Below are positions 13,601 through 50,900 of a stretch of DNA of 64,000 nt, one piece after another; within the stretch, counting starts at the first letter, position 1; every line of letters begins with the position of its first letter. A program made the translations under genes and the position numbers. The DNA is from Raillietiella orientalis. Its lineage: Eukaryota. Location: NCBI GenBank assembly GCA_036172245.1, contig JAYWIR010000018.1, forward strand, positions 3,596,001 through 3,660,000. Direction: 5' to 3'. A model generated the notes under the pieces. It made no database searches. It saw nothing but the letters and a program-made list of their open reading frames with translations, and had not been told where the DNA came from.

Positions 13601-16069
13601 GTTTGGGTGGAATTCTGCATGCAGTTTGGACAACACCATACAAAGCAGGGATATCTATGGCACACATTGTAATTATTTCTCAGTCTGAAATTTCAACGTG
13701 CTGGTGGAGGAAAGGAAACGATTTTCGCCGACAGAGTAGAAGAAGGAATGGGCGTTGGAAAAGAGGCAGCCGAGTTGGCAGTAGATTGTGCGTTCCAGTC
13801 AGTCTGAGAAATGGAACCTGACCAAGAAGGACCAAGAAGGCCGTAGGTGTTTTCAGTGGATGCTCAGAGGTCAAAATCGTGGTAACTTGAGCTCCTGAAG
13901 ATCGTGTAAATTGAGGAAGGGCTGCGTACTCACGTATTTTTTAACGTTGAGACAAAAAGAAACTCTTCATCATCCAAATTTCTGTGCCTCTGCATTTCCG
14001 TTTTTCGGGTTTTGCCTTTCGTCCACAATCCTTATTCCTTCATGGGGTTTCTCACGATCACCCTACATTTGCTTGCTCTACTTTGAAGTGTCTCAATCAG
14101 CCAACAGTTCTTTCTTTGAGTTTCTCTCCGGCAGATTCTATCTGGAGCGCTGTAAACCGAAATCGATTAACAGTGCATCTCCAGAGAGAGACGGGATGTT
14201 CTTGCAAAATGGAAGTTTGCAAAATATCTCCTTTTGTTAAAAGCCCCTTCGAAGCACAATTTCGTTCTTTCCTTTGCTTATTTATCCAAATCTTTTTGAT
14301 GAATCCTTTTTTGAGTTCCTTGTAGCAGAACAAAGCCTTGCTCTGAAAGCGGCTTCTCTCCACACAGATGTTGATGTTGGGGTGAAAAAAATCCAAGTCC
14401 TGCTCTCGTTAGCGGTCCTGATGAAGAGCTCTTGCATGGAGGGCTTGTTGAAGTCGGAACCAAGGAAGGAAGAAACAGAAATGCACAAAAAATAACGATG
14501 GAAAGGAATAAACTCCGAGCATCCACGCTTAGGAGACAGAGACCCAGCTAGGGCCCGCAAGTTCAAGTTTTCGGGATGGAACCGAATACTTCCGGAGAAG
14601 CAAGCCTCTCAAAAGGAAGGAATGCAACGGAAGAATGCGTGAAGTTTCATGCATCATCCCTAGAGTTTTTCTCCACGTTCTGATGCTAAAACATAGGCAT
14701 GTATACGAGGTGGTACTTGGAAAGTAACCGAAGAGTTCGTTCAGCAAATAAGACTTCTCGGCTATACTTTTCCACTTCCTTTACTGAAAGGGTTTTAAGG
14801 ATGTTTCTTTTCAAGCACGTCCAACGGCCCTCATGTATGGATACAAAACTCAATCTGCTCAAAACCCTGCAGTTCATAAAGATTCTTTGTTAAAAACAAA
14901 TATGATTACTTTTTAAATTTTCATTGCTTAGTGAAAGAGACTGTGATCACTTGCAGTGTGAAATTTCGAAAACAGCTCTGTTTGGCCGAGTTGGATGGCG
15001 ACTGCAGATTTTGTTTTCTTCTGGGCTTCGACAACTCCACAGACGTGGTACTCAGTGGCGGAAAACAAATCGTGCAAGTGAAAGTGAAAGCAGCTGCTCT
15101 TTTGAGAGATTCCAGGATCCAGCACTCCTCAAGCATCGGAGCATTATCCCTTCAGCATTGCAGTTTTAATGCGGAAAAAGAATAAACGATGATTAAAATT
15201 TACTTCTCAATGCCTCAGGACATAAGGCGCAGGACAATTTTTTGCCATGTTCAGCTTCCGGGTTTAGCCTCCACTTCTTTGCTTCATCCTCGCTCTCATA
15301 ACTAAAGTGCAGTTCTCCATAACGAACAAGAGGAAAAGAAAAAAAAAATGAAAAGAATTTCTTAATGCCGTAAAAGAACCCTGAAGTTTCTGTACTTTTT
15401 TTTATTGGTATACCCGTCCGTACTCATACTCTGTGGAATAGTCCACAATCCTGTGGATGCTGCGTCGCGCAACTTCGGATCAGTCGCGTAGTCCTGCAGC
15501 CGCCACCGGGCCAAACCGACTTGACCTTCCTCCCTCCCTCACCAGGTTGATGATGCTGCGGCGCCTGGTGCTTAGAGATGCGTTGCTCAGCATCGACTGT
15601 GCACATTTCAGCAGGCTCGCGCCTGTACGGGTGAAGATTGCGTGGGAGGAATCCGACGTGATGGGATATTCTCAAAAACTCACGTTGCAGGAGAGGGAAG
15701 GATAGAGATGAGACGGAAAAAAAACAGAAACGAGGAAGTCGAACCCATACAAAAAACAAAAGCGTCACGAGTGCATCATTCATCCATCCCAGCAAACACC
15801 TCGTGCACTGCGTGCCTTATGCGGACCGAGTTGGTTTCGAGTCGCAACCTGCAAAGGGAAAGCCAAGAAAATTGAGGATAGGGCGATTCTCGCCTTACGT
15901 TGGAGTGTTTCATTATTGTGCATTCAAGAATTTGCACTTCCAACCAATAATGAATTAACAATATTTCACGTATTTTCAAGGCGGACATTTGAATAGCCAA
16001 ACACTTACATTCGAAATGCAATTCTGACATTTGTAATGACCTCCACATGCCGCGTTTTGGAAAGCTACA

Positions 16070-19000
16070 ATGACTCCCAGGAGAATTTCGACTCGCTCCA
16101 TGAATGTTAGCAGCCACCACACGGTCAAGCTGAAAAAACTCTCGCGGAAGGCAACCACCTCCACTCCCGTGTCCAGCGGTTGCATGGAGGAATTCCCCGT
16201 CGGCAATGAAGTGTCCAACATCTGGAAGGAGCTGAGGGAGAAGAAACAGCTCTGCGACGGGGTTATTCGGACCACGGACGGCGTCGTCTTCCACATCCAC
16301 CGCGCTATTCTTTCCGTAGCCAGCCCTTACTTTAAAGCTCTATTTACCAACAGCCTAAAGCAGGGCAACCCGGAGACCACGGAGGTCCTGTTCGACATCA
16401 GCGGCGACATCATGAACCTGATCCTCGATTTTATCTACACCGGGAAGTGCAAGATCACCAGCCAGAACGTCGAGAAGCTCCTGCCCGTGGCGGACCACTT
16501 CCAAGTTCTTGGGGTGGTCAAGTTCTGCTGCGAGTTTCTAAGCCGCGAGCTTAGACCCGACAACTCCCTCGGCATCTACAAGTTCGCAAAACATTACTTC
16601 TGCAAGGAGCTGGAGGCGAAGGCGAGAAAGTACATACTGGTCAGGTTCTCGGACTTGGTCGCCCAGAGCAACGAGTTCGTCCTGCTCCCCGAGGAGGAGC
16701 TTGAGGACTTCCTCAAGGACGACGAGCTGAACGTCCGCAACGAGGAGCTCGTCTTCGAGGCTTTGCTCAAGTGGGTCGAGTACGACGCAGAGAGGCGCTC
16801 TGGCAAGCTGGCGAGCCTTTTCCACTGCGTGCGCTTCGGACTGATGAGCTACAAGTATTTCACGGATATCGTGTGGAAGAACTCGCTGATCTCCAGCAGC
16901 CAGGTATTCCGTCCGAAAGTCGAGGAGCACCTCTCCACGTGAGCGCAACCTGCCGGCCCTCACTTTCTCCACAGCCATGTTCAGTGGCTCTGCGCGCATG
17001 CGCACGAATCGGCTCGTTCGCGATTGCCGCGTGCCTAGCGAAAGATGCCATGTCAACAGTGATGGCAAGCAGCAATTAAAGAAGGCGGGGGAGGGAATAT
17101 GAAACGGAATGCTTTTCCCCATCATCTCTGTGATCTCCTTTCGCAAAATTTCTCGCCCTTTCCATCCCGAAGTGGTCAGAGTGCACGCTCGGCAGGTTCC
17201 GCTGTTGACCGCTCAAGCGGTCTCGCTCCGCGTTTCCAGTCGCTGCCTGAGGATGACGAAGAGAGAGGACAGCAGAGTCGGCAGCGGATGAGATGAATTT
17301 TCTATTGCTTCCAGGAGTGCCAAGCGTCCCTTTACCCATCCTCCGTGTTCCTGGCCCAGCTTGATTCTTCAGGAGGAGAGACGGACCTTAACGACCCCCT
17401 TGCGAGACCACGAATTCCTCATGAAATTCTCTTCGCTATCGGCGGGTGGAGTGCAGGAAGCCCTACGAGTTTCGTCGAGACCTACGATACTAGGTACCGT
17501 TGTCAACTGATCTTGGGAAGTGACCTTGGGACCAGGGAGGGGGAGAACAAAGTAGAAAAAAATGGCATGACTTTTTCCGAAAGAGCCGACCGCTGGTTCT
17601 TGTCGGTGAACACGGACACCACGCCTCGGGCCTACCACGGACTGGTGGAGCTCAACGGACTGATCTACATGATCGGCGGCTTTGATGGGAACGAGCACTT
17701 CAACACTGTCCGCTGCTTCAACCCAGTGACCAAAGTTTGGAAGGAGCGTGCCTGCATGTACACCCCCAGATGCTACGTCAGCGTGTGCACCTTAGGTACA
17801 GGAGACATAAGCGGAGCGCGTCTTACGCGTCTTACACCACGAGGCTTGGTGCCTCTTTCCTGCGGCTGCGCCTCGGCTTGTCTGTGTCCTTCTCTTCCTA
17901 AAAGTTGAGAAAACAATACCTACCCCGTCTTCCTTTAACGAAGCGGGCCATAGTACCCCAATCAGGGTGTCGCCAGCGTCGCATGCCGTGACCGCGGGCT
18001 GAGCGTTCCTACCCGGCTTAGGGGGCCGGAAAGGAACACCTCAGAAGGATGGGAACTCAATAAAGGCGTGGAAACCTTAACGCTGCGTAGCTCCCATCTC
18101 TTGCGAAGAGATTCGTCAGATCTCCCTGCAGACTCCGCTACCGAAGCTCAGAAGGAGAAAAAAAGAGAGAGCAGCCACCGAGTCTCGCCGGCTTAAGGAA
18201 ACTTCCGGAAAACGGCGTGATGTGCGATCCTGCGCGGTTCCCGCGAGTGCTCTGAAAGAGCGAGCACGAGCAACCGACCCACGCTTGAAGTCTCGAGGAC
18301 CAGAGGATGACCCAGATTAACCGCTGCTTCCAGACGGGCACATCTACGCGATCGGCGGATACGACGGGAGGTCCAGAATGAACAGCGCCGAAAAATACGA
18401 CCCCGGGATCAACCAATGGGAGCTGCTCCCGTCCATGCACAGGCAGAGGTCGGACGCCAGTTCCGCGTCGCTCGACGGGAAAGTTTACATCGCCGGGGGC
18501 TTCAACGGACAAGAAGTGCTGAATAGCGCCGAAGTATACGACTCTAGAACAAGACAGTGGTCTTTCATTAGTCCTATGCTGAACGCCAGAAGCGGGGTCA
18601 GCCTGATTGCGTACCACGGCTACCTGTACGCGCTTGGAGGATTCAATGGCTTTACGAGGCTGAACTCTGGTGAGTTGCGGGGCATCTCCCATTTTCCCTT
18701 TCTTTCCCGGTTTCGGCTCGTCCTGCTTTCTGCTCTCGTCAGGTCAATTTTTCGTTCCCACTGACTCTCGTGCATTTTCCCAAGTTCCAAAGGTCACTTC
18801 ACCCTTCTGCCTGCTCCCCGGTGAAGTCACCAGCGGATAAGAGCGCATGCTTATCGTGCGCAACGCGTCTAGAATCCAAGCAGTCCCTCCTCCCTGACAA
18901 TACTGCTGAATGAGGGTAAAACGCCCTTCCTCACTGCGTCCTGCTAGTCACTTCCAGCAGAGGAGCGGAAGAAGTAATAACAGAGCCATGGGGCTTTATA

Positions 19001-20022
19001 AGAGGAGGAGTCTTTCTCTTGTCCGCGCGGGGAGGAGTGAAGGGACGCGGCAGCTCGACTCTTGCGTGTCCTTTGCTCAATTCCGCAGCTCCAAGCTACC
19101 GTTGACGCGGAGACATCCACTCCGATCCCGTTCTTCAACTGCGTCTCTCGCCAGAATCCGTTTCCTGTTGCCCGCAAGGACTCGGCAGCAGAAAGAGGAT
19201 TTCCTCATAGAGCTGCAAACGACTTCGGAGAGCGGATTGCCCTGCTAAGACAGACTTTCTGAGCACGATTGCGTTCCGAAGGAAAAGGCTTTTTCGCCTA
19301 TGTCTCTTCCTTTCTCCTTTTCCCCGCGCAGCACATCCTTTCCCGCGTAAACTGGCGCCTTCTCGTTGCCTCGTGCAGGTGAGAAGTTCGACCCATCCCG
19401 AGGTTCCCAGTGGCAGGAGATTCCCGAGATGTACAGCCCGAGGAGCAACTTCGCCACAGCCACCCTGGACGACATGATCTTTGTGATTGGAGGATTCAAC
19501 GGTAAGCGAGGACAGGGAGAGAGCGCCGCGCAGGCTCTGCAGGACACCCTCCTCCATCCTCCTCTCCCTTCCTGCCCGTCTCGCTCAGCGTCAACAGTTG
19601 CCATTGGCATCCAGAGAACTTGAAGAGGTCGTCCTCTGTTAGCCAGAGTTTGTTGGTCGTGCAGAAGCCCTTCTTCAACCTTCTCTGAATCGTGGGCGAC
19701 TCCCCCGGCATTTTCATGGCAACGGAAGCGGAGTGAGGGCGGAGGGAGGCTGCGGAGAAGGAAAGGAATCTTCCTGTTTATGGGCACCTATGCATTGCCA
19801 GGGACGACGACCATTTCCTTCGTGGAGTGCTACGATGGCGAGAGCAACGAGTGGTACGATGCCTCCAGCATGAATCTCAACCGCAGTGCCCTGAGCGCCT
19901 GCGTGGTCCGCGGGATTCCTAACGCAAGGGACTACTCGTACATCGCTCGCGTCCAGGAGGTACAGGGTCACCTCGAGGAGGAGAAACCGGGTCCGGAAGG
20001 TCCCTCGCAGACTTCATCGTGA
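16070..20022 (+). CDS. KLHL10: Kelch-like protein 10 (BTB-BACK-Kelch Cullin-3 adaptor), about 634 aa
   Basis: Exons 16070-16903, 17315-17493, 17584-17795, 18334-18669, 19379-19501, 19802-20022 join in frame (1905 nt). BTB motif FHIHRAILSVASPYFKALFT and a BACK domain. KLHL10-type kelch motifs RPRIPHEILFAIGGWSAGSPT, RADRW, PRAYHG, RCYVSV, QRSDASS, PRSNF, RSALSACVV. The start could be a later ATG. Confidence 0.93.
18238..18315 (+). repeat. About 79-bp dispersed repeat, copy 1 (KLHL10 intron 3)
   Basis: ttcccgcgagtgctctgaaagagcgagcacgag...tctcgaggaccagaggatgacccag recurs at 23466-23544 with a few differences. Confidence 0.9.
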
Positions 20023-23000: not shown

Positions 23001-23465
23001 AGGTTCTCGAAATTCCAATTTGAAAATAGATTATCGTTTAGAGCAGAGGTTCCCAAACCACGGCCCGCGGGCAACTCATGACCCGTCTGCTTTCAGAAAG
23101 TGGCCCGCGAAGCCTCAATATGTAACATAATATATTTTAATAATTACAAAAATTTATTGATGTTCAAATAGATGAATATTATTTTAACGAAAGTCGCAGT
23201 AATGAGCTTATAACTTTAGGCACGCCAGCTTTGTGCCCAGACATCGATAAACTGGCATCTGAACTTCAGTAACTTGAGGTGAAGAACAGTTACAATTGTA
23301 AATTGATTACATTTATAGCGGTTTTTAAAACCAATCAAATGGTTATTCAAAATTGCTAAATAAACATTTGATTCGAAACAGAACATGACTGTAGTGTAGG
23401 ACTCATACTGACAGCTCTTGAAGTTGTAGAATTTGGTTGCTGAAAGTTAAGAATGATATTGCACC

Positions 23466-23544
23466 TTCCCGCGAGTGCTCTGAAAGAGCGAGCACGAGCG
23501 ACCGGCCCCACGCTTGAGGTCTCGAGGACCAGAGGATGACCCAG
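23466..23544 (+). repeat. About 79-bp dispersed repeat, copy 2 (inside hAT element)
   Basis: Near-identical to 18238-18315. Confidence 0.9.
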
Positions 23545-23562
23545 CAGCATGTTGGATTCAAT

Positions 23563-23855
23563 AAAAACGAAAAAAACCACTTGACAAACTCCGCCAGTCT
23601 TTTTATCGTAGTAGTGAAGCTATTTATTTATCTTCATTCCGTACAGATAAAACGACAAACAAACTTGGCGTATCTGACGTCACATGTTTAATTTTTCACA
23701 CTATGTGCACCTTACGTCTTTATAAAATTTTCGGGTTTTTTACCTATATAAGCTGAAACGCGCTTGTAAAGCGTTTGAAACATTAAAAAACGCCAATATT
23801 TAGAAATAGATAGTGAATTACGAGCTACTTAGGGTTTCTTTTGTCTTTTTTTCTG
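23563..23855. repeat. Wolbachia-type intergenic repeat element (endosymbiont-derived nuclear insert)
   Basis: Contains acttgacaaactccgccag, cactatgtgcacctta, ttttacctatataagctgaaacgcgctt and tttcttttgtctttttttctg, which I recognise from memory as a Wolbachia intergenic repeat family. It abuts the hlyD fragment. Not verified by search. Confidence 0.7.
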
Positions 23856-23857
23856 TA

Positions 23858-24313
23858 GAAAAACTCTTATCACTTTTGGCATCTGAAGCAAGACTTATTG
23901 CTATTAGGGGAGGCTTAGACATAATTGAGTTTCCCGATGAAGTCAAAGAATTATCTGATGGCAATCTTGCAAACAAAGTGATGAAAAATCAGATAAGATT
24001 ATTTGATTCTCAGCACAAGAGAATATTTGGAAAAACTGAAATACCGCAACAACGTATACGGCAGTAACATGATGAATTAGTAGGATTGAATTCTCAACTG
24101 GATGCAGCTCTCAGGCAATATGACTTAATAGCTGAGGAATTAGAAACAAAAAGGCAGCTTCTTAGCGGTGGTCACATAGGTAAGCCACGCATTTTGGCTT
24201 TGGAAAAGCAGTTTGCTGAAATTGAAGGTAGAGTTGGTCATTACCGTGCTGCAATATCTCAAGTGCAACAAAAAATTGGAGAAAACGAGTTAGAAATCAT
24301 AAATGTGAAGAAT
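23858..24313 (+). pseudogene. Internal fragment of a bacterial HlyD-family type I secretion membrane-fusion protein, Wolbachia/Rickettsiales-like
   Basis: ORFs 23813-24067 and 24086-24325 share one frame, separated by TAA (24065-24067): EKLLSLLASEARLIAIRGGLDIIEFPDEVKELS...NQIRLFDSQ...QQRIRQ*HDELVGLNSQL...IAEELETKRQLLSGGHIGKPRILALEKQFAEIEGRVGHYRAAISQVQQKIGENELEIINVKN. This is the coiled-coil hairpin of HlyD/AprE; no introns, no N- or C-terminus. Confidence 0.82.
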
Positions 24314-27300
24314 GTGACCTTATAAACATTGATAATTTTATAACGTCGTGGCCCGCTTGAGTACTTAAAATAATAGATATGGCCCTCCACTTGAAATGCT
24401 TGGGAACCACTGGTTTGCATCAATGGAGGATTGGAGGATGGTAGGAGAAAACCCATTTCGCCGCAGCATCGTGAAGTGCGTTTGTTCTTTTCGTAGAAAG
24501 CGAAAAGCGGATGAAAATTCTGCTTACGTCGGATGCTTTTATCATCGGAAACCGACCAATGACGGCTGAGCTTCTGAACAAGCATTTCAACAATCAACAA
24601 GGAACCCCGCGACAGCCATTGTTGCGAATGTTCTGTGACCTTGTAGGGTCAGCCAACGCAGAAGCATTGCCGAACAATGAAATGGATTGCGATTGTTTTT
24701 CTTCTTTTTTTTTTCGCAAGAATAATCCTCAGCTGAGTTGACAATCGCAAACGAGCGGACTGTGAAAATCACAGCACCGTTTGCTTGAGAGCGGAGGAGC
24801 AGAGTCACCCTACATGGCCCAAATGGAATCGAAGCTCCTCGGCTTGAGCAAATGAGAACAAACTGTCCCAGAAACTGACGACTGGATGCAGACCAATCGG
24901 CTCGTTGGCGAGAAAAGGCAAAAGGGGTTCAGCTGCTTCCGCGTGCAAACGGGGTGGCACTTGGATTCAGGATGCTGAACAACCATTTGATCCGAAGGCG
25001 AAAAAGATTACATCCACGGAATCATTTCACCAGTCCACTTATGCTGAATACATCGCACCGTACGCATCTCGGATCATAAGCACTGCACACCTTTTCAGCA
25101 AGAACACACACAAAAACATCAAAAACACGCACACAGGATTCAGTTCTTCGTAAATTTGGATTTTCAATTCGAGAAAAAGCAGTGAGGATCCAAGCTCTTA
25201 TTTAATACGTCGACAAACGAAAGACATAAAAAGAAAAATAATATATATAATATTATATGTAGAAAACGATTTCCAGATGGAAATCCTTTTCTGTCTTCTC
25301 AGTTCTTCGACACGGTTCCACGCCACCCGAGGGTGGGTAGTCTTCAAGATAGGAGGTACCCCGGGAGGGGTCCGCCCTATGAATCCAGGAAGGACTCGGA
25401 GTTCGTTCCTCTCACGCCTGGGGAGGGGTCCCCGGAAATAGGGATCACCTCCAGCCTGGTTGTCTCCGGAGGAGAATCCATAAGGGAATCTCTTTCCCTA
25501 TTCTCTCCGAAGAGACCCTTGGAGGGGTCCGCTCCAGTTTTTCTCTGAAGGGAACCTGGAAGGGATCCGATCCTGTTTTTACTCCTCTGAGGAGAACCCA
25601 GGTGAGGCTTCTGAAATTCAGAAGGATGCAGCTTATCACGTCTCTGCACTCTCTGGAGAGGTGGTGGCGACACACCTACTCCATCAGTCCGACACGGAGG
25701 GATTCCTCCCGGAATGGGGGGTCTGCTCCTTCACAACCGGAGGGGAGCTCCCACTCCTTGATTCCTGGAAGGACAAGGAGGTCGACTCCCATTTGTTCCG
25801 GCCCTCATCGGGGGACATCCGGTTTAAACCGCTACCAGTGCCACACCCAGATTAATGTAGGCCAACCAGCTTCATCTTGTGGGGTGAACTCGGAACCCAC
25901 GACGCTTGGTGGCGCCACGCGCGCGGAGACCACCGTAAGCACACGGCCTCCGACGCGGGCAAAATTAGGAAACACTTCCTGAAGTGTTTCCTGAGCTTGC
26001 GGATCAAAATGAAAGCAAATGGAACATTCGCTGAAGCAAAAAAATAAATGAACAAAAACAAAACCAAAAAAAAAAAAAATTCAATAGAATTCTTGCAAAA
26101 ATTCCTAGGAAACAAAAAAAGGAGAATAACGTCTAAATACGCAAACAGCAGGGCAAAAAAAAAAAACCGGCTGAGGACAACAAATTAAAGATCAGAAGAA
26201 AACCGCACACAGCAAACCGCATCAACAGATTAAGTGTCACTCAATCAGAGAAAGAAAAAAACGCAACAAAAATCAGACTTCAAACGAAACTCAAAGATAA
26301 ATTAACGTTATATCCGATACTTCAAAATTGAATGTAGCACTTCTAAGACCAAATGCTTTTTTCTCCTTAACACTGTCGCGTGGATGACGAAGAATACAAG
26401 CTTTCCATAAAAGTAGCAGCATGCAAAACACACCAAGACAAAAAGAAACGTGTTCTTTTGGTTATGACAAAAAAAATTGATGGTCACCCATTCGGTGCAC
26501 TCCGCAGCAGCGTTCCTCGATTTCCAGTCATCCCGTGGACCAGCTTTCGTACATTTCAGTAGCAGGCGAAAAGCGGTTTCGACATCATAACTTGAAATGG
26601 CACGTACGAAATCGTCAGACCGCGCCTCGGCTTTATGATAACTTCCGAAACAGAATCCCTTCCTCAAGCAATCTGCGTTTCCTCTTACGCTGGGATGACG
26701 CGTAGCATGAATGCCGCTTAGAGCTCCCTGCGACACGTCTCGAAAAACGGCACAGCGAAATCTGTGTTCGCGAATTTCGTGTGTGCATCACACCCGGAGA
26801 TATTGCTTACTACATACAGCTTCAACGGATCTGACGGCTGCGGAATTTCGACCCCCCCCTTCATCAGCGAAAAGAGGAGGCTCCGAGGTATCATTTGGCT
26901 GTTTCGTTAGCGGGATGCAACGTCGAATGTCGCCTACTGCTGCTTGGCGCGGACGCAAGATGTGTTCCCATTCTTTCTGTTTGCACCGCCGCCGACGGCG
27001 AGACGGTCGCCATGGAAACCACACTGTTGCGTTCTCCGCCTCCATCCTTCAAGGAACCATGCTTCCTGGCTACTACCTTCACAGTCACGCAACGTGCTCG
27101 GACTGTTTCGGGACCTCACCCTGACATCGCAGCCGCTGGGCACGAAATCGAAAGAATGCTCTTGCGCGAAAAAGGAAGACTTCTTGAAGATCTGCCGGGT
27201 TTGGAGCGCTCTCCTGCGGGCTTCCCTAAGAGTGTCTCGTCCCCCTCCTCCCAAGTAATTGAAAATTGAGCTCGTTGGAAGCTTCCGTGCGTCGCCGCTC

Positions 27301-33820: not shown

Positions 33821-36640
33821 CACCCGGTCACGCCGGGGCGTTTATTATAAAGTCACTATAATTCGAGGTACTAGGCCCCACTACGGCCAACACAACAGGA
33901 CCTGCGGGGAGTTGTCTCCCCAAACTGTAAGCGGTGCGGGGAAGTGGAAACGCTCCCGCACCTGCTCCTGGACTGCGGTGCCCTCCTAGGACTGTGGCGG
34001 AGGCTGGCCTCAGCTCTCCTGCACCAGGGGACACCGCAACAGACTTGATGCGCCGCTTCTTCACGCCAGGCTGCCTGTCTTTGGGTGCTGTCGTTGCAAC
34101 CGTGTGTTGCACCCGCGCCATCGACAAGCCCCACCGAGAGTTGGAGAAGCTGGCCATCCTTCGTCAGCCCACCGGACTAGCCAGCGCAAGCATGTCGTCG
34201 GCTGCCGAGTGGGCCCACCTACCGGAGAGCGTGAGGAGAGAGATCGCCGGCATCCATCGCCGGTTCTGAAAGGAAGGAACGGCCGAACCAAAGACCCCTG
34301 TCCCCTGCCCTCCATATTTTTATTTTTATTCTTTTTTAGTAGTGTATCTGTGGTCCCCTCCCTCCCGTTCCGGACTTTCGGCATACCGACCTGCGTGTCA
34401 GGGATCCCACCCCCTTCGTCTCTTGTTTTCCCCTTTGTCCAGGAACTCTGTTCCCGGATAGTTTTTTAATAAACGCCCCGGCGCACCCGGGTGATAAACA
34501 ACAGGACCTGCCGGGTCGCCGGTGCGCAGACCGGCGCGACTCCCCTCGGCAGCGGAAGTTGATGGGGGAAAAAACAAAAAGAAAAATAAAAACAGAAAAA
34601 AAAAAAGAGATTTGGGAGGGAGGGGAAGGGATCACAGTCCATTGGGAGGAGAGTCCATCCTTTCCAGGATGCCCTCCAGGTCCATCCGTATAATTCCCAG
34701 GTGCAGCCATCTGATCGCAAGTCGCAGGTAGCGGACTGCAAGTTCGACAGCATCCCTCTCGTAGTTCGGTCTTTTCACGTCTCTCCAGCACGTCACAATC
34801 CCTCGGATGCAGCAGAGTGCCTCCAGGGCTGCGGCTGGTCGCAGGGCGTCCCGCACGAACAGAACCCGACAAACATCTCTGGGCTGGCTGCCCACCTGGA
34901 TCCGTAGGGAGGTACCAAGACGCTCCCACAGGGGTCAGAAGGCAGCACAATCAACAAGGAGGTGGAGGAGGGATTCCAGCTCCCCGCACCTGATGCAGGC
35001 CGGATTCACTCGACCCCGTGTCCAGTGGTGGCGGCGTGCGTTGCAGGGTAGGCCCCAATGCAACAACAGAAGCGCCGACTCCTGCCACTTCAGGGGGAGG
35101 ATCCTCGAACCAATTAAAACCGGGAGCCACTTCAGGTCATCCGTAGAGATGCCCAGCAGCTCGCCCCTTCTCATTAGTCCGCGCGGGAGGACACTTCGGG
35201 TCGTGGCATCGGCCAGCTGCCCCATGGTCCAACGGCTCATCAGTTTCTCTCTGCCTGCGATATGGCAGGAGAATTGCCACCTAGGCATGCGGCTGCTGGG
35301 GAGCGCCCTCCTTAGGAAGGGAATCTCCGTAGCTAGGGGGGTTGTCTCTGGCCACGTGCTCCTCGAGGGACACTCGAGTATCTTCCGCAGAGTGCAGCGG
35401 GCGCAGGCGCCGTGTCACAGGCAGTTCCACACCTCGTGGCTCCTCTCATTTATCTTCGCCCACGTGCCAGTTGTCTCCTCCAGCCATGAGGTGGAGTTGG
35501 CGAAGCTGCAGACCATCCAGCCGTTCTCCGTAGCCAGCGTGGCCATGCGTCCAGGGAGAAGGCCTCAACTTTTGATCTTCCGGCCACGGCACAGAAGATA
35601 CGACGCGAGACCTTGGGTCCCGGATACACGGCAGGCAAGGAGGTGGGCCAGAACGCAATGAGGGGTGCTCCATAACTTCGCTGCGATGGCTATGGTGCGC
35701 CATCACAGCTGGATCTCCATCCGCTCCAGCGTCAGGAGGCCGAGACTGCCATCCCGACGTGGAGCACAAAAGTCCTTCAACGGGCCTTCCTCTTCCCCAA
35801 AGGGCTATCCTCAGGAGATCCTTCGTCCGTTTCTTCAACTGGGGCGGGACGGGCAAACAAAAAGCAGGGGGAGGAGGATGGGAACCGCGAACGCGTTCCA
35901 CACCGCAGCCCGTTCCGGCAGGAGAAACTTGCCGTCCAAGAACGGGCCGATCGCCTACTCTACTTTTCGGAGACGACCTGACCAGGCTTCCGCAAGGCAG
36001 AAGTCCCCCAACGGGACACCCAGGTACCTGGCCGTGGGGATCCCCAAGCGGATCCTGTCAGGCCGTCCAACCCACGTCACACCAACCGCCACCACCGACG
36101 ACTTGTTCATCGCGTTCTCTTGTGTTTCGGACTCACCTGAGAGCAGGCGGAGATTGAAGTTTCCCGTTATCAGTGGGCCTTCCTCAAGTTCGTGTGCGCC
36201 AGCCAATCGTGCTTTAGCGTTTCCAGCAACACGGTGCGGTCGTGGTACCCCTGGGAGTGTATACGTTCGTGACGATCAGGTCGATCGAGTCAGACCACCT
36301 GAGGATCAGCTGACCGACCCGACCGTCGTCATCGAAACGCGCGCTCTTCACGGCAGCGTTGATGGCTGGCTTCATGAAAAACGTGACGCCACAGGTGTAG
36401 CGAGCGTCGCATTGCCTGTACAACAAACCCCCCGCGATCGTCTCGATCTCCTGGACGTCTGCCGCGGTGATCACGTGGATCTCCTGCAGCAGGGTCAGGA
36501 CGAACTCACGCAGGATGTCGGCTGTATCCCTTCTGTTGCCGTCGTCGCGCAGCCCGTTGACATTCCAACAAGCCTCGCGGATCCGACGGCGACAGGAGAG
36601 CCCGGGTGCTATTTCCGGGAAATCGGCGCTGCGGCGTCCG
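33821..36640 (-). mobile_element. L1/Tx1-type non-LTR retrotransposon with RT core deleted, interrupted at 33906-34497
   Basis: APE endonuclease (ACWNVNGL, LLQEIH, CGVTFF, DGR, TNVYTP, TGNFN) fused at about 36115 to post-RT sequence (NKSSVV...RYLGVPLG). C-terminal CIRCGELESLLHLLVDC. 3' terminal motif at 33821-33846. Confidence 0.88.
33906..34497 (+). mobile_element. 5'-truncated non-LTR retrotransposon with 14-bp target-site duplication
   Basis: TSD ACAACAGGACCTGC at 33892-33905 and 34498-34511. ORF2 end EWAHLPESVRREIAGIHRRF*. 3' motif at 34468-34493. Confidence 0.9.
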
Positions 36641-36644
36641 CCAC

Positions 36645-36935
36645 CTGTCGAGTGGGTCCATCTTCCAGAGAACGTTAGGAGCGAGATCGCCGTCATCCAT
36701 AGCCAGTTCTGAAGGAAAGGAACGGCCCAAACCAAAGACCCCTGTCCCCTACCCTCCCCATATCTTTATTTCTATTCTTTTATATGTGTATTTGTGGTCC
36801 CCTCCCTCCCATTCCGGACTTCCGGTTTACCGACCTGCGTCTTGAAGATCCCCCCCCTTCGTTTTCTCTGTGTCCTTTGTCCGGGAGCTCTGTTCCCGGA
36901 TAGTTTACTAATAAACGCCCCGGCGCACCCGGGTG
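36645..36935 (+). mobile_element. 3' end fragment of the same non-LTR subfamily as 33906-34497
   Basis: EWVHLPENVRSEIAVIHSQF*, a 3' UTR alignable to 34204-34493, and the terminal motif at 36910-36935. Confidence 0.88.
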
Positions 36936-39447: not shown

Positions 39448-42400
39448 CCCGCCATTGTGAACAGTTGCGCTGACTTGGCGCATCGGGGAGGATGCGCCGC
39501 CACTGGCGACGTCCTCGTACGATTTCGCTTCTCCGCGAAGGCCGTGAACAACGGCGCGCCACCGCCTGTGCTCCGCTTGAGGCGCACGTGTTTCGCGCGT
39601 TTCTGGCGTGTGCGGTACGTTTGCTGGGGCGCTCTTCGAGGCGCTCCCGTCGACGCTGGCCTTTCGCCTTCCAGGTCACCATTGTCCAGGAGCCGTCCTT
39701 TTCACCGATGACGTCCCCCCAGGAGAGTCGCTCTCCTGCGAAGCAACGTCTTGTTTCGCGAAGGTCGCGTCGTGACTGGCGGGTGCTTTCCGAAGTCCGC
39801 CTCGTTGCGCCGGCGCGTTCGTCCAGCCAAAGGCGAACGAACGATCCAGGAAGAGGAGTAGCCAGACTAAGAAATGAAAAGTTCAAAGAAAGGGCTGCCC
39901 GACCCACCATGCCAGTCTGGGACGGGGAAAAGCACCCTCAAACAAAGAAAGATACAAGATACGAACGAGTGAAAGGCCAAACGAGCCGACAAGCGTCTTT
40001 CGCTTCGGCCGTTTCATCGTTTCGCAAAGGCCGCTGATTGCTTGCCTGCTTCTTCGTTTACACGAGGCCACTTATCTGCCGTCTTCATGCTGGCGGCTTC
40101 GATGTTCCCGGTCGCCTCCTTGGGTATCAGTCGCCACTGGAATACGCGGTGGTCCATGACGATGGTCCGCATACAACTGATGGCCGCGATGAGCACGCCG
40201 CTGCGCGTGAAGCCATGGATGACGTACGTGTGAGTCTTCCAGGCGTGGAGGCGCAGGAGCGCCTCCAGGCACCCTGGCCGTGGCCTGCACGGCACCGCAC
40301 TCGAAGAGCATGTGCACAACCGATTCCACTGCTCCACACTCTTCAACGCTGGGGCATCGTCAACTCCCCCGGAATCGAAGAGGGCGTGTTGCTCCGCAAA
40401 AGAAACCTCAAAGCAACGCAAATAGCAGCTCATCCACGCATGCATTCACGAGAGTCTGCCAAATCGCATTTCGATCCGTGCAAAATGTGGCTTTCCATCC
40501 TCGGCCCATTGCTTTCCGAATGGCATGCGTTCTCGCGAAGGAGCAAATCCATTGCAAGGCTGCGCTGCATCCACACACGTGTTGCTCGTAGACATTCGAA
40601 GCTGCGGGACGCACACTATGGCAGGCAATGCACTCCTTCCAAAGCGCACATCGATAGGCATGGAAAATTGCACTCCAAGACACGATTCCCATGTTCCCAC
40701 GTATGCGTTCACCGTGCTCCTCGAAAACACTACTTGAGCCTCTGAATTCGTGTCAGCAGGGACGATTGCCCATTCCTTTTCTTTTCCGCTTGCGGAAATG
40801 AATGTCGTCAATGGAGCTGAGAAGAGGAAGGAATGGGTGCATGCAGCGTACGTTCCGTCTTCTCGATGGAGCCTTTCACTGCAACAACCGGACGTGCGAT
40901 GGATACGCGTCAGCGGAACGAACGTGTACAAACCGAATCCCGCAATTCATCTGCAGCTCGTGCTCACCGCGGAAAGGGGTCGAGCAGCAGCATTTGCGTT
41001 CCTTCGTCTTCCAACTGTTCCGACTTTGCAGCATTGGCTCGCGTGCCTGAGATTCTTGTGAACGGATGCTCCGCGCTGGCGTGCATGAGTTTCGCAATCC
41101 ATCCCGAAAGGACTCCTCCATTCCATACGTGTGATGGTGAGTCGCTGTGTTTCAGCGTGCACGCGTGGCTTTCTGCTGCCCCACACGGTGGCTCCAGTTT
41201 TCGCGTGTCTCCTTCACGACGCGTCACATTGGCACATTGGACAGGAACGTACCTTGGACACAAGTGTTCATGTAGGGAGGTTGCTTGCATATGGCTGCGG
41301 CAGTGTCAACATCATTCTTGCCAGAAAAAGGAATGTGTTGATGCGGGACTGGAGAAATTTTGTCATTCGCAAAGGGAGCTCGCTGGAGGAAGGGTTGCGA
41401 ACTGGAGATGGCCATTCGGTTGCATGGAACGAACAACGGATCAATTTCGCTTACGAATTTCACCGGGAAACTGAGGCAGACTCGTGTTCAAGGCAACTCT
41501 GAATGAATGGATCGTGAAAGACTGCGTTGTGGCAGCTGGTCAACGTACTCATGCATCATCTTTGCAAACCCCTCTCGTCCTTCCTGCTTACCATTTCCGA
41601 GATCCGCTTGTTCGTGATGGACGCGGTCCGCACGGGCAACACTGAAAAAAAATGATCCCGGAAACAGAAGAAAAGACCCGGTCGTTCTTGCAAAGACATC
41701 TTGAAGGATTCCCATTCCGGATGAAAAGAACACCTAGTCCGAAGCAACCACTTTGGCGAGATGTCAATGCTAGTTCTTATCAGCTTCACAAGGGTCGACG
41801 GTAATTTTCGAGAAATTGCCTACCACGCACTTCGGGAGTGCATTGAACTGCTGCCGTCCACCTCACACAGAAGCGTTTCCTCCACGTTCACTCGAAGAAC
41901 GAATACCTTTCGTCAGGGAATACGCATTCGGTGCCGAGTGGCTTTCAGGACAGTACAACTCGGAAGAAGACGCGACTTTCCATTGCGAGTGCAAGTGCTC
42001 TAAGCAATTGCTCACATCCTCCGAAACGCGTTTTGCGTTTGCACGCGCACGCTGCGTGCACATCCGTCCCATCGAATGCGGAGTTCGTGTGGTCGCCAAG
42101 CGGAAAATGTACACACGTGGCCGCAAACCTTTTCCTAGCCAAACATGGCGCGATCCATGCAAAGTGGGTTCGTTCCCAGTTTGGAAAATCCGCACCGTGT
42201 ACGACTGCCGAAAAGTGGGGTGTGAGCACGAATGCTGATTTGGTTGTGGTACGCCTGCGCACTCGAAACCTGGCTTCTATGTCATCCATGGACCACGCAC
42301 ACTCGAAGCAACGCAACCGTGGCATCTGCTTCTCCCAGCCCAACCATTCAGGGATACACAAACACTTTCATTCAATTTTCAGATTCCGGCGCTCATCGAG

Positions 42401-44895
42401 CGGCAGCCGGGTAGACGCAGCAAAGCAGCAGGCGGAAAAAGCGGAGCACGCTGGCCCGCGTGCCGGATTGGCGAGCTGGCGACCTGTCTGCCAGCCGGTC
42501 CATGCGTGCGCCAGCAGCCGAACTGCAGCGCTTTCGTTCGCTGCCAGCGACTGCGAGTCCGCTGGAGGAGCTGCTGCTCGTGCCGCCCGCGGCAACCAGG
42601 CGCCAAGCGGAGCTTTCTGCAGCAGGACAGCCTCCGCCCAGGCTGCCGCTGCCACCGTCCGTGGCGACACTGTCGCCTGCCGCCGCCGCGCAGCTGCTGC
42701 CTTCGATGGAAACACTGCGCTCGCATCCTTCTCCAGGTCCACGATCGGAAGCAGGCGCCTCCTGGACCGGTGTGCACACCGCCGCTGCTGTGTGTCGCGC
42801 GGGACCGTCGTCCTGAAGGCCGCACGCCAGGTCGCAGGTCGCTTCTGCCATGCCGGACGTGAAATACGTCCAGTCGGCGATGAAGTCGTCTGCCGGTGCG
42901 TCGCCTTCATCACGGTAAGAATCCGGGAACGGGACGTCGCTCACGTTTCGCTGCTCCAGGCTGGTCCACGGATCCCATGCGCCGACGCTGCCTCCGTTCG
43001 GCTCCGAGGATACCGAGCTACCGCTGCCACCGTCCGTTTCGCTCGATAGAAACGTCCATTCGGTGCAGCAGGACGACGCCGTTCCGCATCTTGGGTCGGC
43101 TGCGCTGGCGCTGCTGCCGTCCTCCGTCGCCCAGCTCCTGTCCCCGATGACGGCCCGCTCCTCCAGGCTGTTGCTCTCATCCTGGCTTGGAGCGGGCTCC
43201 CGTGCGCACATGGCGCTGGTGGTCCGGCCGTGGCCGTCCCGCCGTGGTCTACCAACCGTTGCTGCGTGTTGGCCGTCGCTACCTCCCGACCACGACGAGG
43301 AAGACGCCGAAGAGAACGTTTCCGACGCTCCCTGCTGCCGCGCCTCAACGTCTACTTTGTCCAGGGCACGCAGCAACTCCTCCCCTACTGGGGTCCTCTC
43401 CTCCACCTCGGCAGTGCCAAAGGGTGCATCCGAGCAATCGCTCTCGCCTTCCACAATCAAAGCATCCTGAGAACCGCTCATCTTGGCACGAAGCAGAATT
43501 TCCTGCTGGCACTCGATGCACGGACACGTTTGCTAAACAAAGAAAGAAATCCATGGAGACGACAACGCATCTTCCGTAAAAGAAATAGCCGGGCAACGGT
43601 TTGTAAACCCGCTTCTCTGTAGCTCGGCCACGTAAGGGATGTGTTTCTTGATTTCATTTTTTCTCATCGAAAAGTTTCAGTCGATGAGGATTATCCTCGG
43701 TGATAAAATTGGGAATTTGTTCGAGGAAGCGGATGAAAGAAATTTCCGTTTTCAGCAGACACCGCTGCACGGATACAGGAACGTTTCTCCCGCTGACGTT
43801 CGGTCAAGAACAAGACTTCCAAACCAGCTGTCAGCAACCTGACAAGGTTGCGTCTTGCGTCTCTCACTTCGGAGAGACAACGTTTATGGCTTCGTTTTGG
43901 CGTGGAGTAGCAGGTTCCAGGGGGTGTGGGGGAGGGGGGACTCCACACATTCCGCCGTGGATCCGCCTCTGCGTACGTGGGACGGTCGTCGCTCCTCCCA
44001 TTGTAGAATCTTCCGTTTCCTGGCCTCCGCATACAAAGAGCAGACTGTTCGGGGGCTTCTCCGGCTGGTAATCGCTTTTCCGTGAGCATTCCTGAAGTAG
44101 CGGATGCCACCATCGCCACCGAATTCTTCTTGTGAATTCCAACTTGTGGCAGAATTTCCGAGATCCTAGGTTTTCGGAGAGCCAGCAAGCAATCTGTGAA
44201 CCCTACACCGCTTGCCCTCTCTGCCTAGCAGCAGGGCTTGCACCATGCCGAAGCGACTGCTCCGCACACCACGAAGCATGCGCAGCTCTTCCCGAAAGTC
44301 TTCCCAACGGCGCCATGCATGAATCGCTCGTGGTGGACGTTTCGCGCCGGAAATCTCCGAAAAGGATGGCGAAATTCGAAACCAGTTCGTGACCCGCTGT
44401 GCGGAACATCTCAATCCGCGGGCTGTCCGTCCATCCATGCACAGCGGTTCGACTGCCCGTGCTCCCACTGCCCACAACTGTCTGCGAAGCTACGCGTGCA
44501 AGACGCGTACGTCCACCTTTGGGACGCAGGCAAGCGTCCAGGGCTTAAGGAATCTTGCCAAGAGAGTTATCTTCGATAAGAATGCCCTTCCGGTATACAA
44601 GGAAACCACAAGGAGAGGAAGGGCCACACGATTTGCCGAAGCGGCCGGCACTTGCACGGAAAAACGCAGCCCCAAAAGTCGCACGCGGGGAAGACGAAGC
44701 GAACCGATTGGAAGACGCGCAATGGCAAAGCGCCGTCGCCATGGAGCGCAGCTGGAAGGCGTTTTCGCCCTCCACCGATCGCGCGGCAGGTAGGCCGCTT
44801 GCAGAGGCGCTCATGGTCCAGCAAAGGGACGCAGCTGTCTGTCGCTTTCGTGAATAGCGGAACCGCTGTCGCGCTCTGCAAACCCCTAACCGACC
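39448..44895. repeat. Copy 1 of a 5.4-kb near-identical direct duplication of highly decayed LINE-like sequence (minus strand)
   Basis: Matches 52728-58283 at offset 13280-13288, with identical ORF translations. ESVVHMLFEC (about 40300-40329) resembles the ORF2 C-terminal zinc finger; the rest is too decayed to classify. Confidence 0.92.
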
Positions 44896-45857: not shown

Positions 45858-46235
45858 AAAACACTCCCACCTTTGGACGGTCGCCGCTCTTTGCGAACTG
45901 TCCGCAATCCCGGAAGTTCGCGCTTTGCTTCTGGAAAATCCGCTGCTTGGTTTGCGGAGGGATGCACACGAAGTGTGTTATGTCCAAGGTGGTCGGTCAC
46001 TCCCTCTTCCCGGATCCCTGTACTCTTTGGCACGAGTTGCAGTGGGTGGGTGTTGATCAGTGCTTGCTTCCACGTCTCCCCACTTTCCGCGTTTGCTCAT
46101 TACGGAAGGCGCGAGGCCTCTGGAGGCGTTTCGCAGCTGCCTGCGGCCGCAGAAAGGCGCTTGTCCGATTCGGTGGCACGATCCAGGATTTGTGGCACGT
46201 CGAGCGGATCCACGGATCGCCGCAGCCACCTCATC
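45858..46235. repeat. About 378-bp direct repeat, copy 1 (left of NUMT)
   Basis: Matches 52217-52594 (offset 6359) with scattered substitutions. Confidence 0.92.
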
Positions 46236-46335
46236 CCGTTGAGGGGGGAATGCGAGTTTTGGAATGTGAGTGGTGTTATTGCCAAGTAGGATCGATGGAT
46301 TGGGAGTCGAATGCATTAATTTTGCCATATTGGAA

Positions 46336-47843
<1,508 letters not shown>

Positions 47844-47853
47844 ATACAGTTCG

Positions 47854-47910
47854 TAAGATTTTCAACTTTGAACTTTGAAGGTTAGCATTTGTATTAAACT
47901 TGTAATCTAA
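47854..47910 (-). tRNA. trnW: Mitochondrial tRNA-Trp (TCA) pseudogene in NUMT
   Basis: The minus strand reads aagtttaa...aaccTTCAAAGtt, the typical arthropod trnW anticodon arm. Confidence 0.65.
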
Positions 47911-47979
47911 GGGGGTAGTTGGATGGGTGAGGAAAGTGGTAAATTGTGAATTTCTTAACGATGGAATCTTTTGCTATGG

Positions 47980-48030
47980 GTTAGCGTTGTTGAGTTTGGG
48001 ATTGCAAATCCCATGTTATAGAAGAATTGA
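47980..48030 (+). tRNA. trnC: Mitochondrial tRNA-Cys (GCA) pseudogene in NUMT
   Basis: Anticodon arm TGGGA-TTGCAAA-TCCCA on the strand opposite cox1. A trnY-like sequence lies at about 47913-47976. Confidence 0.65.
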
Positions 48031-48094
48031 GTGTGTTTCGAGAGTACAAGGTAGTGCATGATGCACACTAAAATTGGAGTTTAGGGTGTACGTC

Positions 48095-49060
48095 AAATGT
48101 AGCTTGTAAATGGGCTTGGATGGTAGTAGTTAAGGCAGCATGGAAAGAGTATGAAAAGATAGGAGATGGAGGTTGGACTGAAAGATGGTTTAGGGTGATT
48201 ATGTGGTGTGTTCATGGGGATGGTAGTCCAATATGAAGGTAGATTAGGATGGAGATTGAAGAAGAGATGATTAGGGCGATTGCTTGTGGAGCGGGAATTC
48301 GTTCTAAAGTGCTTCGTTTTGGAAGGAATTCTGGTGGAGGGGGTATGCCGGAGGGGTTTCCTAGTGTGCTGTGAGGAAGAGAGATGTTGGAGCGTAGGGG
48401 GAGTTTGGGATCGGGATGGGAGTAAGTGATTGTGTGTTTCCTTTTTGTACAATTAGGATGGATGCGAGTGTTTTGATGGAGTAGATGATGAAGCAGGAAG
48501 TTCATATTCTGAAGGCTGTGTTTACTGAACAAGTTCTTCATGCTATAGGAGAAATGGATGAGTAGGCTAGAAGTAGTCGGATGGATGGGGTAGTTGGTCC
48601 TCTGATGGGGGCTGCGAGAATTGTTGAAGGTAGGATGATTGGTGAAGGTGAGAGGTGAAGGGATGGACATCGGAGCCCGTTTTTGTGAAGATGGTAGCAT
48701 TTTGGCAGTTTGTCATGGGAAATTCTTATTGATAGTGGGCAATGGTCAACAATGGAATGGAAGTATGGCAAGTTTTGTGTGTATGATTATTGCTATAGTG
48801 GTGGACGTGATGGAGGGGAAGGAGTTGAGAACGATGGAGGTGAATAGAAAGAGTGATGATGAAAGTGCTTGGATGAGGAAATGTTTTACTGCAGAATGTG
48901 TCGAGGAGTTGGTGGATGGGGATGCCATGATGGGGCATATGGAGATTGTATTGATTTCCAGTCTGGATCATATCATTAGTCAATGATTGGTTGATAATGT
49001 AATCAATGTTGTAAAAAAGACTAAAGGTGAAAAAATCAAGGCTGGAAGAGAGGGAATAGG
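48095..49060 (-). pseudogene. nad2: Mitochondrial NADH dehydrogenase subunit 2 pseudogene
   Basis: SAVKHFLIQALSS, KLAILPFH, IRLLLAYSSI, GIPPPPEFLPK; located between trnM and cox1. Confidence 0.9.
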
Positions 49061-49061
49061 G

Positions 49062-49125
49062 GGATGAAAGGGACGGATCATAAATGGGGTATGAGCCCAT
49101 CAGCTTGTTTAGCTTATCTGTGATT
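49062..49125 (-). tRNA. trnM: Mitochondrial tRNA-Met (CAT) pseudogene in NUMT
   Basis: The minus strand reads agataagctaaacaagctgATGGG-CTCATAC-CCCAT. Confidence 0.85.
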
Positions 49126-49879
49126 GAATTGGATTAGGCTTGTGGTAATGGTGCACAACATGTTATATTGATCGAAGAAATCCTTTTTGTAAGGTACATT
49201 GCTTTAGGGGTTGATAGGTTGAGTGGAGTTTTTATTTTCAAAGGAAATGTGCTTCTCAAACTAGAGAACCTTGGCTTAGCTTTTATGGATTGGTATGGTA
49301 TTCTCAATGTTTGAGAGGGAATAGGATATGTGATTTCAAAGCTGAATTGGTTAATAGAATGGTTTGACAATTTGAAAATGTGATGGTGTATGGTTAATTA
49401 GTGTAATTCGCGGTAGGGAAGTAGGTTGAAGCTGCAGATGGATAGGTGAGGATGCAAGATTGTTTAGTGAGTGATTTGTTGAAAAATTTCCGTGTTACCT
49501 AGTATTGGTCAAGGGGTATGTCAATTTAGAAAGAGTTAAGTTGCTGGGGGGCATGGTGTAAGAAGAATGTTGATTGTGGGGTTGCGTATTTATTTTAGTA
49601 TAATTGTACGGTGATGTGGAAGGTAAATGTTGGAATGTATAATTTGTTGGTGTTAGGGAATTTGAATTTGAATATCAGTTATGGAGGGCTGGTGGATAGC
49701 TGTAAATCTTGTGTGAGGGCGTAGTAGTAGTTTGGATTGGAAGGGCTGGTTTTTATTCTGAGCAATTGGTTTGGTTCGCTATTATTCTAAGATAGTAAAA
49801 ATTGATGAATTTCGTTTATTCTAAAATGATTTGAAGTTATAATGTTTGTTTGCAATTGGGAACATTAAGCATTGAACAG

Positions 49880-49933
<54 letters not shown>

Positions 49934-49935
49934 AT
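49880..49935. repeat. (TA)n-(TG)n compound microsatellite
   Basis: Directly visible. Confidence 0.95.
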
Positions 49936-50857
49936 GTATTTATACTTTTTTAATATCTTGTTTTGTCATTATTACGGAACAAATGCAAAAACATTCAAGT
50001 GGATAATTTATTGATTACCATACAATAGTAATTTTATAACTGATTTTAAATATGATGTTTATAGTAAATCTGGAAAGTAAATAACAAAATATTCTTTGAT
50101 TTTTATGGTTACTAAAAGAATGATTTCTTATTGAGGTATCACATGTTACCTTGTATTTAATGAAATGAATTGTCTTCTCAAAAAAAGGTTTTTACTGTCA
50201 ATCGGGTAAATTTCGAATGGATTCATCTTGAAAAGAAGAAATCGTTTAATCGAATATTTGGTTTACATCAAAGAGGAAAATTTCTTATTTGAGTTGAAAC
50301 GAATATGGCAGAAATATCCGCATTAAATTGAGGATTGAATTCTGCTTCAAGCTGTTAGTAAGTCTTTTTACACGTGTCTTGATGGTAGTTCAAATAATAG
50401 TAAAGTGTGCAGGAATTGTTTGAATTTCAAGTATTCAATTTGAATCCTAAAGAAAAATGGAATGAGCGATTCTTCGAAGTTTCGTTAATCTGCGTGGCAG
50501 CAATAGCGGTTCGACGTAAAAGTTGAATTGATTTCGATGTGTTCTTAACTACAAATCAAACTTTTCGGTTTTTTGTTTGCATATTAATTTCGAAGAAGCT
50601 ATTATTAATAAAACGGAACTCGTTTCTCTACTAGAAATAGTGGATATCAAAAAACAAGGAGGAAGACTTTTTTGAGTTGGTGGTCATGAAGATTAGTAGG
50701 GGAGTTTGCTTCATTAATGATGATTCGTTTTTTAATGTTTGTATATCGTTGATTGGGTTCTATAAGGGTGACTAATTTTCTTAAGAAATGGTAATTGAAA
50801 GTTTGAATCAAGATGCAGCATGCAAAAGAAGAATTTGTGAAGTACGGTGTCTTCAAC

Positions 50858-50861
<4 letters not shown>

Positions 50862-50898
<37 letters not shown>
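50862..50898. repeat. (AT)n microsatellite
   Basis: Directly visible. Confidence 0.95.

Positions 50899-50900
<2 letters not shown>

Follow-up and report, generated by a model that had tools for sequence, protein, structure and literature searches.

Three kinds of locus that have been described before come closest to the one reported here. Nuclear Wolbachia transfers (NUWTs) are, in the accessible passages of a survey of filarial nematodes (10.1101/2025.03.17.643741) and of a study of Brugia malayi (PMC3849323), short and broken Wolbachia gene fragments that lie in a host chromosome and can be assigned to a supergroup. The same passages give a mean length of 434 bp for the NUWTs of Onchocerca and state that hosts can carry several supergroups (10.1101/2025.03.17.643741). 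Single-copy Pack-TIRs, which arise by gap filling that does not depend on transposition, carry non-transposon DNA within a TIR element, exist as a single copy, and combine a small deletion with a nearby host source and microhomology. According to the accessible part of the survey that describes them, 56.9% lie within 15 kb of their parent, the median microhomology is 2 bp, and the gaps have a median of 4.6% of the element (PMC8277862). Complex or mosaic inserts of organellar DNA (numts, nupts, numins), with examples from plants, are described, in the accessible text of PMC6215612, as several unrelated non-nuclear fragments joined with the marks of end joining. The locus that we have analysed here resembles all three. 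It lies in the window, by which we mean the whole analysed stretch of 64,000 nucleotides from Raillietiella orientalis. It is very probably a NUWT, and its hlyD part is derived from supergroup F. We read it as a dead NUWT that was formed in place, as repair filler in a dead copy of a hAT transposon, and that has no function; we give this reading a probability of about 0.8.

The surroundings of the locus are those of a host chromosome. The contig is at least 3.66 Mb long, its only run of N in the window is at 58165-58262, and a spliced Kelch gene lies about 3 kb upstream of the element. Pfam identifies BTB, BACK and Kelch domains on this gene, and splicing of the exons that flank its intron at 17796-18333 (GT-AG) gives a single open frame of Kelch repeats. 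The window therefore has the character of animal nuclear DNA, probably that of an arthropod. The whole BTB-BACK-Kelch gene spans about 16040-20022 on the + strand, with one intron checked. Other features of the window were noted in passing. Over about 6 kb at 46001-52000 the GC skew is very strong, reaching +0.62, and this stretch is probably a G-rich tandem repeat. Open frames of equal length occur at 41847-43532 and 55135-56820 and again at 35662-36678 and 58899-59915, which suggests duplicated segments or repeats, one pair being inverted. A reverse transcriptase frame (RVT_1) is found at 59869-61035.

The composite as a whole occupies 23044..24412 and consists of 852 bp of filler (23465..24316) inside a probable non-autonomous hAT element, which we take to be Buster/Charlie-like. 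The left arm (23044..23464, + strand) starts with a 13-bp TIR and, after an internal deletion, continues into the 3' end of the transposase region, and the right arm (24317..24412, + strand) ends in the matching terminal inverted repeat. The two repeats, at 23044-23056 and 24400-24412, are 13 bp long and complementary at 12 of 13 positions. Copies on five other contigs match the left arm at 86-98%, and the right arm is 87.5-91.7% identical to four paralogues over 96-97 bp. The paralogues that have both arms (L041, L042, L043 and L045) are bordered by target flanks that match at 7-8 of 8 positions; the 8-bp flanks of the window element match at 5 of 8. A possible remnant of the transposase lies in one of three open stretches of L042 (weak match to Dimer_Tnp_hAT, E 0.001), where the score of 19.3 bits lies under the cut-off of 21.4. 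All four two-armed paralogues preserve the empty site: between the positions that correspond to 23464 and 24317 they hold 10-12 bp, where the window copy holds 852 bp. The filler itself is not bordered by a target duplication.

The filler begins with host DNA. A piece of 79 bp with 65% GC (23466..23544, + strand) is a copy of 18238-18315, to which it is 95% identical (E 3.2e-26). The source lies on the + strand within the Kelch intron described above, 5.15 kb upstream, and it is the only other match to the 79-bp piece in the assembly.

The longer of the two bacterial pieces (23857..24314, + strand) is an internal fragment of Wolbachia hlyD, which encodes the periplasmic adaptor of type I secretion; it is supergroup F-like and has neither the 5' nor the 3' end of the gene. 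Frame +2 is open across 23810-24322 save for one TAA at 24065-24067, and the first 16 residues of this open frame are repeat DNA rather than hlyD. Translated with an X at the stop, the frame has a single profile match, to TIGR01843 HlyD (E 9.5e-20), over profile positions 88-237 of 422. The score of 70.9 bits stays under the cut-off of 208.65 because the hlyD sequence is a fragment; in Pfam no family was found for it at E 0.1. It covers about residues 158-309 of a reading frame of about 506 amino acids and is thus truncated at both ends. The first-pass annotation had already recognised an HlyD secretion adaptor with a single nonsense codon and both ends lost, and the profile match, the alignment with Wolbachia hlyD, the TAA and the extent of the fragment bear this out. 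As checks it had proposed a search against Rickettsiales genomes and placement in a supergroup, and for hlyD both turned out in its favour. A scan of species-representative genomes reduced 248 candidate stretches to 26 confirmed loci, which carry the titles Wolbachia (23) or Rickettsiales bacterium (3); none is eukaryotic, and the best reaches 93% amino acid identity. At the DNA level 23857-24314 aligns without gaps over 458 nt, at 94.8-95.0% identity with L014 (wPaur) and L016 and at 94.5% with G015, a complete genome of the F clade. A 40-row tree places the piece, on a branch of 0.04, in a clade of 10 rows (support 100/100) together with wPaur, wTis, wMoz, G015 and G035. The accessible text of PMC9903615 assigns wPaur to supergroup F. 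Judged by the sequence, the donor of this piece was a strain of supergroup F.

As about 30% of a gene with one stop codon, the fragment cannot work as an adaptor. A function was considered and ruled out, since there is no start and no end, and the first in-frame ATG, at 23981, lies only 28 codons before the stop at 24065. The 15 private sites among the 458 positions split into 6 synonymous and 9 non-synonymous ones, and living F strains have similar splits, for example 2:7, 5:8 and 9:14. Only the stop and the truncations therefore show decay. Dating by codon position fails to separate the insert from living strains, so that its date is limited to a few per cent divergence. This is of the same order as the 5% of the 79-bp host copy. 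A second hlyD scrap in the host (L010:1501-1646, G000:C4), 146 bp long and 73% identical to F strains, was ruled out as the source. It is far more decayed and represents a separate and probably older transfer.

The shorter bacterial piece (23545..23856, + strand, 33% GC) is a copy of a dispersed intergenic repeat of Wolbachia, with its leader and with the 3' end cut short. Five of five Wolbachia genomes gave 40-50 matches each (40 candidates scored per genome), and the complete genome G015 holds 67-69 near-full copies. Rfam has no match in the window. The repeat folds little better than its shuffled versions (z -1.63; 6 of 100 shuffles fold as well), and we therefore claim no RNA structure for it. 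Across the Wolbachia genomes G001-G060 the family appears as a repeat of about 300 bp with a TTGACA box near its 5' end and with tens to more than 100 candidates per genome (examples are L014:6070, L015:4401 and L017:6070). Orthologous copies differ by 19-31%, compared with 4-13% for the flanking genes, which suggests fast conversion between copies. We found no paper that describes this repeat family in the literature searched, which included few of the subscription papers.

In F-clade genomes a member of this family lies 17 bp downstream of the hlyD stop, and the two pieces of the window could therefore have been neighbours in the other order. The copies behind hlyD have, however, a conserved upstream flank of their own that is unlike that of the window copy. 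The leader of the window copy is instead that of other paralogues, seen in G002, G003, G004 and G035, so that the repeat would have come from another site in the donor. We have rejected an origin from the copy that follows hlyD on this 5' flank; the identity of the repeat body is uninformative here because of the divergence between orthologous copies. The comparison of flanks thus supports the view that repeat and hlyD are non-adjacent donor segments. Both the naming of a Wolbachia-type intergenic repeat, which occurs in tens of copies per Wolbachia genome, and the proposal that non-adjacent donor segments had been ligated were made in the first-pass annotation and hold up. Its boundaries of 23563..24313 were roughly right, the bacterial DNA starting in fact at 23545 (possibly at 23542) and ending at 24314. 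It had also seen that the fragment is embedded in host and transposon DNA, but it had missed the hAT frame, the third, host-derived piece, and the many similar inserts elsewhere in the genome.

These other inserts were surveyed by comparing 12 further host loci with G015. Ten of the 12 hold Wolbachia DNA, mostly as patchworks of non-adjacent pieces at 72-97% identity; L012 and the local host locus L013 have no match to G015. L007:1501-2066 (G000:C35) is a patchwork of five non-adjacent Wolbachia pieces and L008:129-3157 (G000:C56) one of about seven, both at 85-97% to G015. L008 includes frames that are presumably putA-like and dsbD-like. At L002, L003, L004, L005 and L011 (G000:C2, C36, C55, C6 and C56) the same Wolbachia repeat stands beside decayed gene pieces, which we take to be purK-, pyrE- and dnaJ-like, and some of these loci are split by host repeats. 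L009:1159-2128 (G000:C31) is a decayed patchwork of five pieces, the longest single-copy piece of which sits on a long branch and is 86% identical to wCcry and G056 and 80-84% identical to the F clade.

The joins of the window locus point to the way in which it was formed. At the left junction there is one base (23465) that agrees neither with the paralogous hAT copies nor with the source of the host piece, and microhomology is absent. At the right junction a 2-bp insertion, TG (24315..24316), repeats the last two bases of hlyD and is followed by a 2-bp microhomology, AC, between the continuation of hlyD and the hAT. Each of the four junctions is blunt, has gained 1-2 bases, or may share 2-3 bp of microhomology, the last at two of the four. 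The small deletion, the absence of a duplication of its own, the template 5.15 kb away and the blunt or 2-3-bp junctions are hallmarks of break repair with filler. Of 13 matches in the assembly, the other 12 are short or only 68-87% identical, with the exception of the local host piece (these counts are lower bounds). As there is no close second copy of either piece, free bacterial DNA is the simplest substrate.

While the anatomy, the empty site of the paralogues, the nearby origin of the host piece, the affinity of hlyD to F and the stop codon can be read off directly, the course of events would have been as follows. A deleted hAT copy would already have been present at the site, and a double-strand break would have occurred 96 bp inside its right end. 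The break may then have been patched by end joining or template switching, with a loss of 10-12 bp of the element and a gain of 852 bp. The filler would have been laid down in the order of the nearby host intron copy, the Wolbachia repeat and the hlyD piece, the two bacterial pieces having been drawn from separate places in the donor DNA, and the hAT would not have moved since the insertion. The local host piece suggests that the repair took place on the spot and that bacterial DNA was present at a germline break beside nuclear templates. We infer repair in place, in a single event, with the germline as its site and free bacterial DNA as its substrate.

The two bacterial pieces differ in how far they stand from known strains, and the donor lineage can be named with less certainty for the repeat than for hlyD. 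The branch of the repeat is 0.17 and that of hlyD 0.04, and a single young donor alone does not explain both. Two lineages might have contributed to the same repair event, hlyD coming from F and the repeat from a non-F and probably unsampled lineage, through co-infection or through an older insert that was copied again. We regard this as possible but rather doubtful. Among the 67 near-full copies of the repeat in G015 the closest reaches 81.4% identity, as opposed to 94.5% for hlyD; as a control, 23 of 23 fetched repeat copies from G035 match a G015 copy at 92-97%, and six other repeat copies in the host are 89-96% identical to F-clade copies. The best matches lie outside F, at 84-88% in a clade that includes wPsyl and WOLB0025 and at 83-85% in wCcry (12 or 40 candidates scored per genome). 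The former clade, which we take to be supergroup A, is the sister of wStri and wCon. A free tree places the window copy beside these non-F copies, with weak support (83/27). However, an AU test does not reject a grouping with F (p 0.276); it was run on 48 rows made up of the copies nearest to the window, with at most 10 per group and near-duplicates dropped. Four F copies stand on the non-F side of the tree, and F genomes hold a minor subfamily there. A test of diagnostic columns that had given 11 of 11 for a non-F repeat was withdrawn: it had used non-F copies picked for their likeness to the window, and the result vanished with 14 unselected copies from G007. A leader of the TTGGATTCA type is present in F-clade genomes, and none was seen in 400 kb of G007. 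The 19-31% by which orthologous copies behind hlyD differ between F strains also argues that the repeat evolves fast. The insert at L009 ranks the genomes as the window repeat does, but its tree rejects the wPsyl clade as donor (p 0.018) and does not reject F (p 0.26), and the host copies L004 and L006 are likewise just 80-83% identical to F. Double infections as such occur, and the accessible part of one survey reports them in 15 of 93 specimens (PMC9894559). If two donors were involved, the junction would bear physical witness that a single cell had been doubly infected, and symbiont DNA would have come to lie between transposon ends that could in principle spread it. If the same held over the many patchwork inserts of this genome, their junctions would allow co-infections to be dated and would bring an unsampled Wolbachia lineage to light.

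The cargo may also have been captured elsewhere and moved here by hAT transposition, as a mobile Pack-hAT, or its pieces may have arrived by separate events at a fragile site. The window copy does retain both of its terminal repeats. The five hAT copies compared (that of the window, L041, L042, L043 and L045) each have different internal deletions, which points to repeated abortive gap repair in this family, and separate events would agree with the unequal branch lengths of repeat and hlyD. Nevertheless, no second loaded copy was found in the assembly, the 79-bp piece, which separates the bacterial DNA from the hAT arm, originates 5 kb away, and three independent hits in one 12-bp site would be improbable. 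We therefore consider this origin unlikely.

That the junction between repeat and hlyD existed in the donor already is, in our view, very unlikely. In that case the repeat would have broken hlyD, and one contiguous stretch of 770 bp would have been transferred. The repeat is indeed abundant and changes fast, and the two pieces share one strand. However, 57 of 60 Wolbachia genomes match hlyD in a single uninterrupted piece, and normal hlyD precedes the breakpoint in those F loci that were inspected. Moreover, the repeat ends at the junction, short of the end of other copies, and patchworks of several pieces are common among the inserts of this host.

Among the 22 sequencing runs listed, none holds half of the query words; they contain small shares only, and none is from the host or from RNA. 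Four of them were examined and contain bacterial hlyD and repeat pieces together with short, low matches on the hAT. The notion of an assembly artefact or contamination, in which reads from a live Wolbachia would have been built into a host contig, can draw on the fact that the junctions are known from the assembly, but it is barely credible. The 770 bp of bacterial DNA are two non-adjacent pieces with a stop codon, set between both arms of one host transposon, and a diverged (95%) local intron copy also flanks them. All four runs yield an intact hlyD contig over 23857-24314 with 21-25 differences, and no contig in them connects the repeat with hlyD or host DNA with bacterial DNA.

We keep to the reading as a dead NUWT that arose by filler repair within a hAT copy, and on this reading the locus can be set against the known systems. 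Its bacterial gene is a clear orthologue fragment of the Wolbachia HlyD of TIGR01843, 93% identical to wPaur in amino acids, and differs in comprising about 30% of the gene. Taken singly, the locus is a fossil without function and of a familiar kind, a clean if ordinary relic of DNA that leaked from symbiont to host. It records a supergroup F infection in the history of the host, and its value lies in being an unusually readable example of the mechanism, given the empty site of the paralogues and the local host piece. The literature searched, which comprised main texts and few subscription papers, held no Wolbachia filler in a TIR transposon; the supplementary tables of the NUWT and Pack-TIR studies could hold cases. 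In contrast to the NUWTs described, the window insert is a composite that includes a host-templated piece, and it sits inside a hAT for which paralogues show the empty site. Two supergroups at one junction do not appear in the accessible passages of those NUWT papers. Mosaic organelle inserts differ in their donor, which here is an endosymbiont, and in that a local nuclear template is included here. As in single-copy Pack-TIRs, the foreign sequence stands between both TIR termini and is absent from all four paralogues with both arms, and the 79-bp piece has one parent, 5.15 kb away, in line with the cis bias of these elements. However, these elements are defined by a host parent of 80-120% length for the whole internal sequence, and 770 of the 852 bp are Wolbachia DNA without a close host parent. 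The survey, as far as its accessible text sets out the rule, could not have listed such a case, since it required that host parent (PMC8277862). The locus thus works like a single-copy Pack-TIR and at the same time falls outside the definition under which such elements were surveyed.
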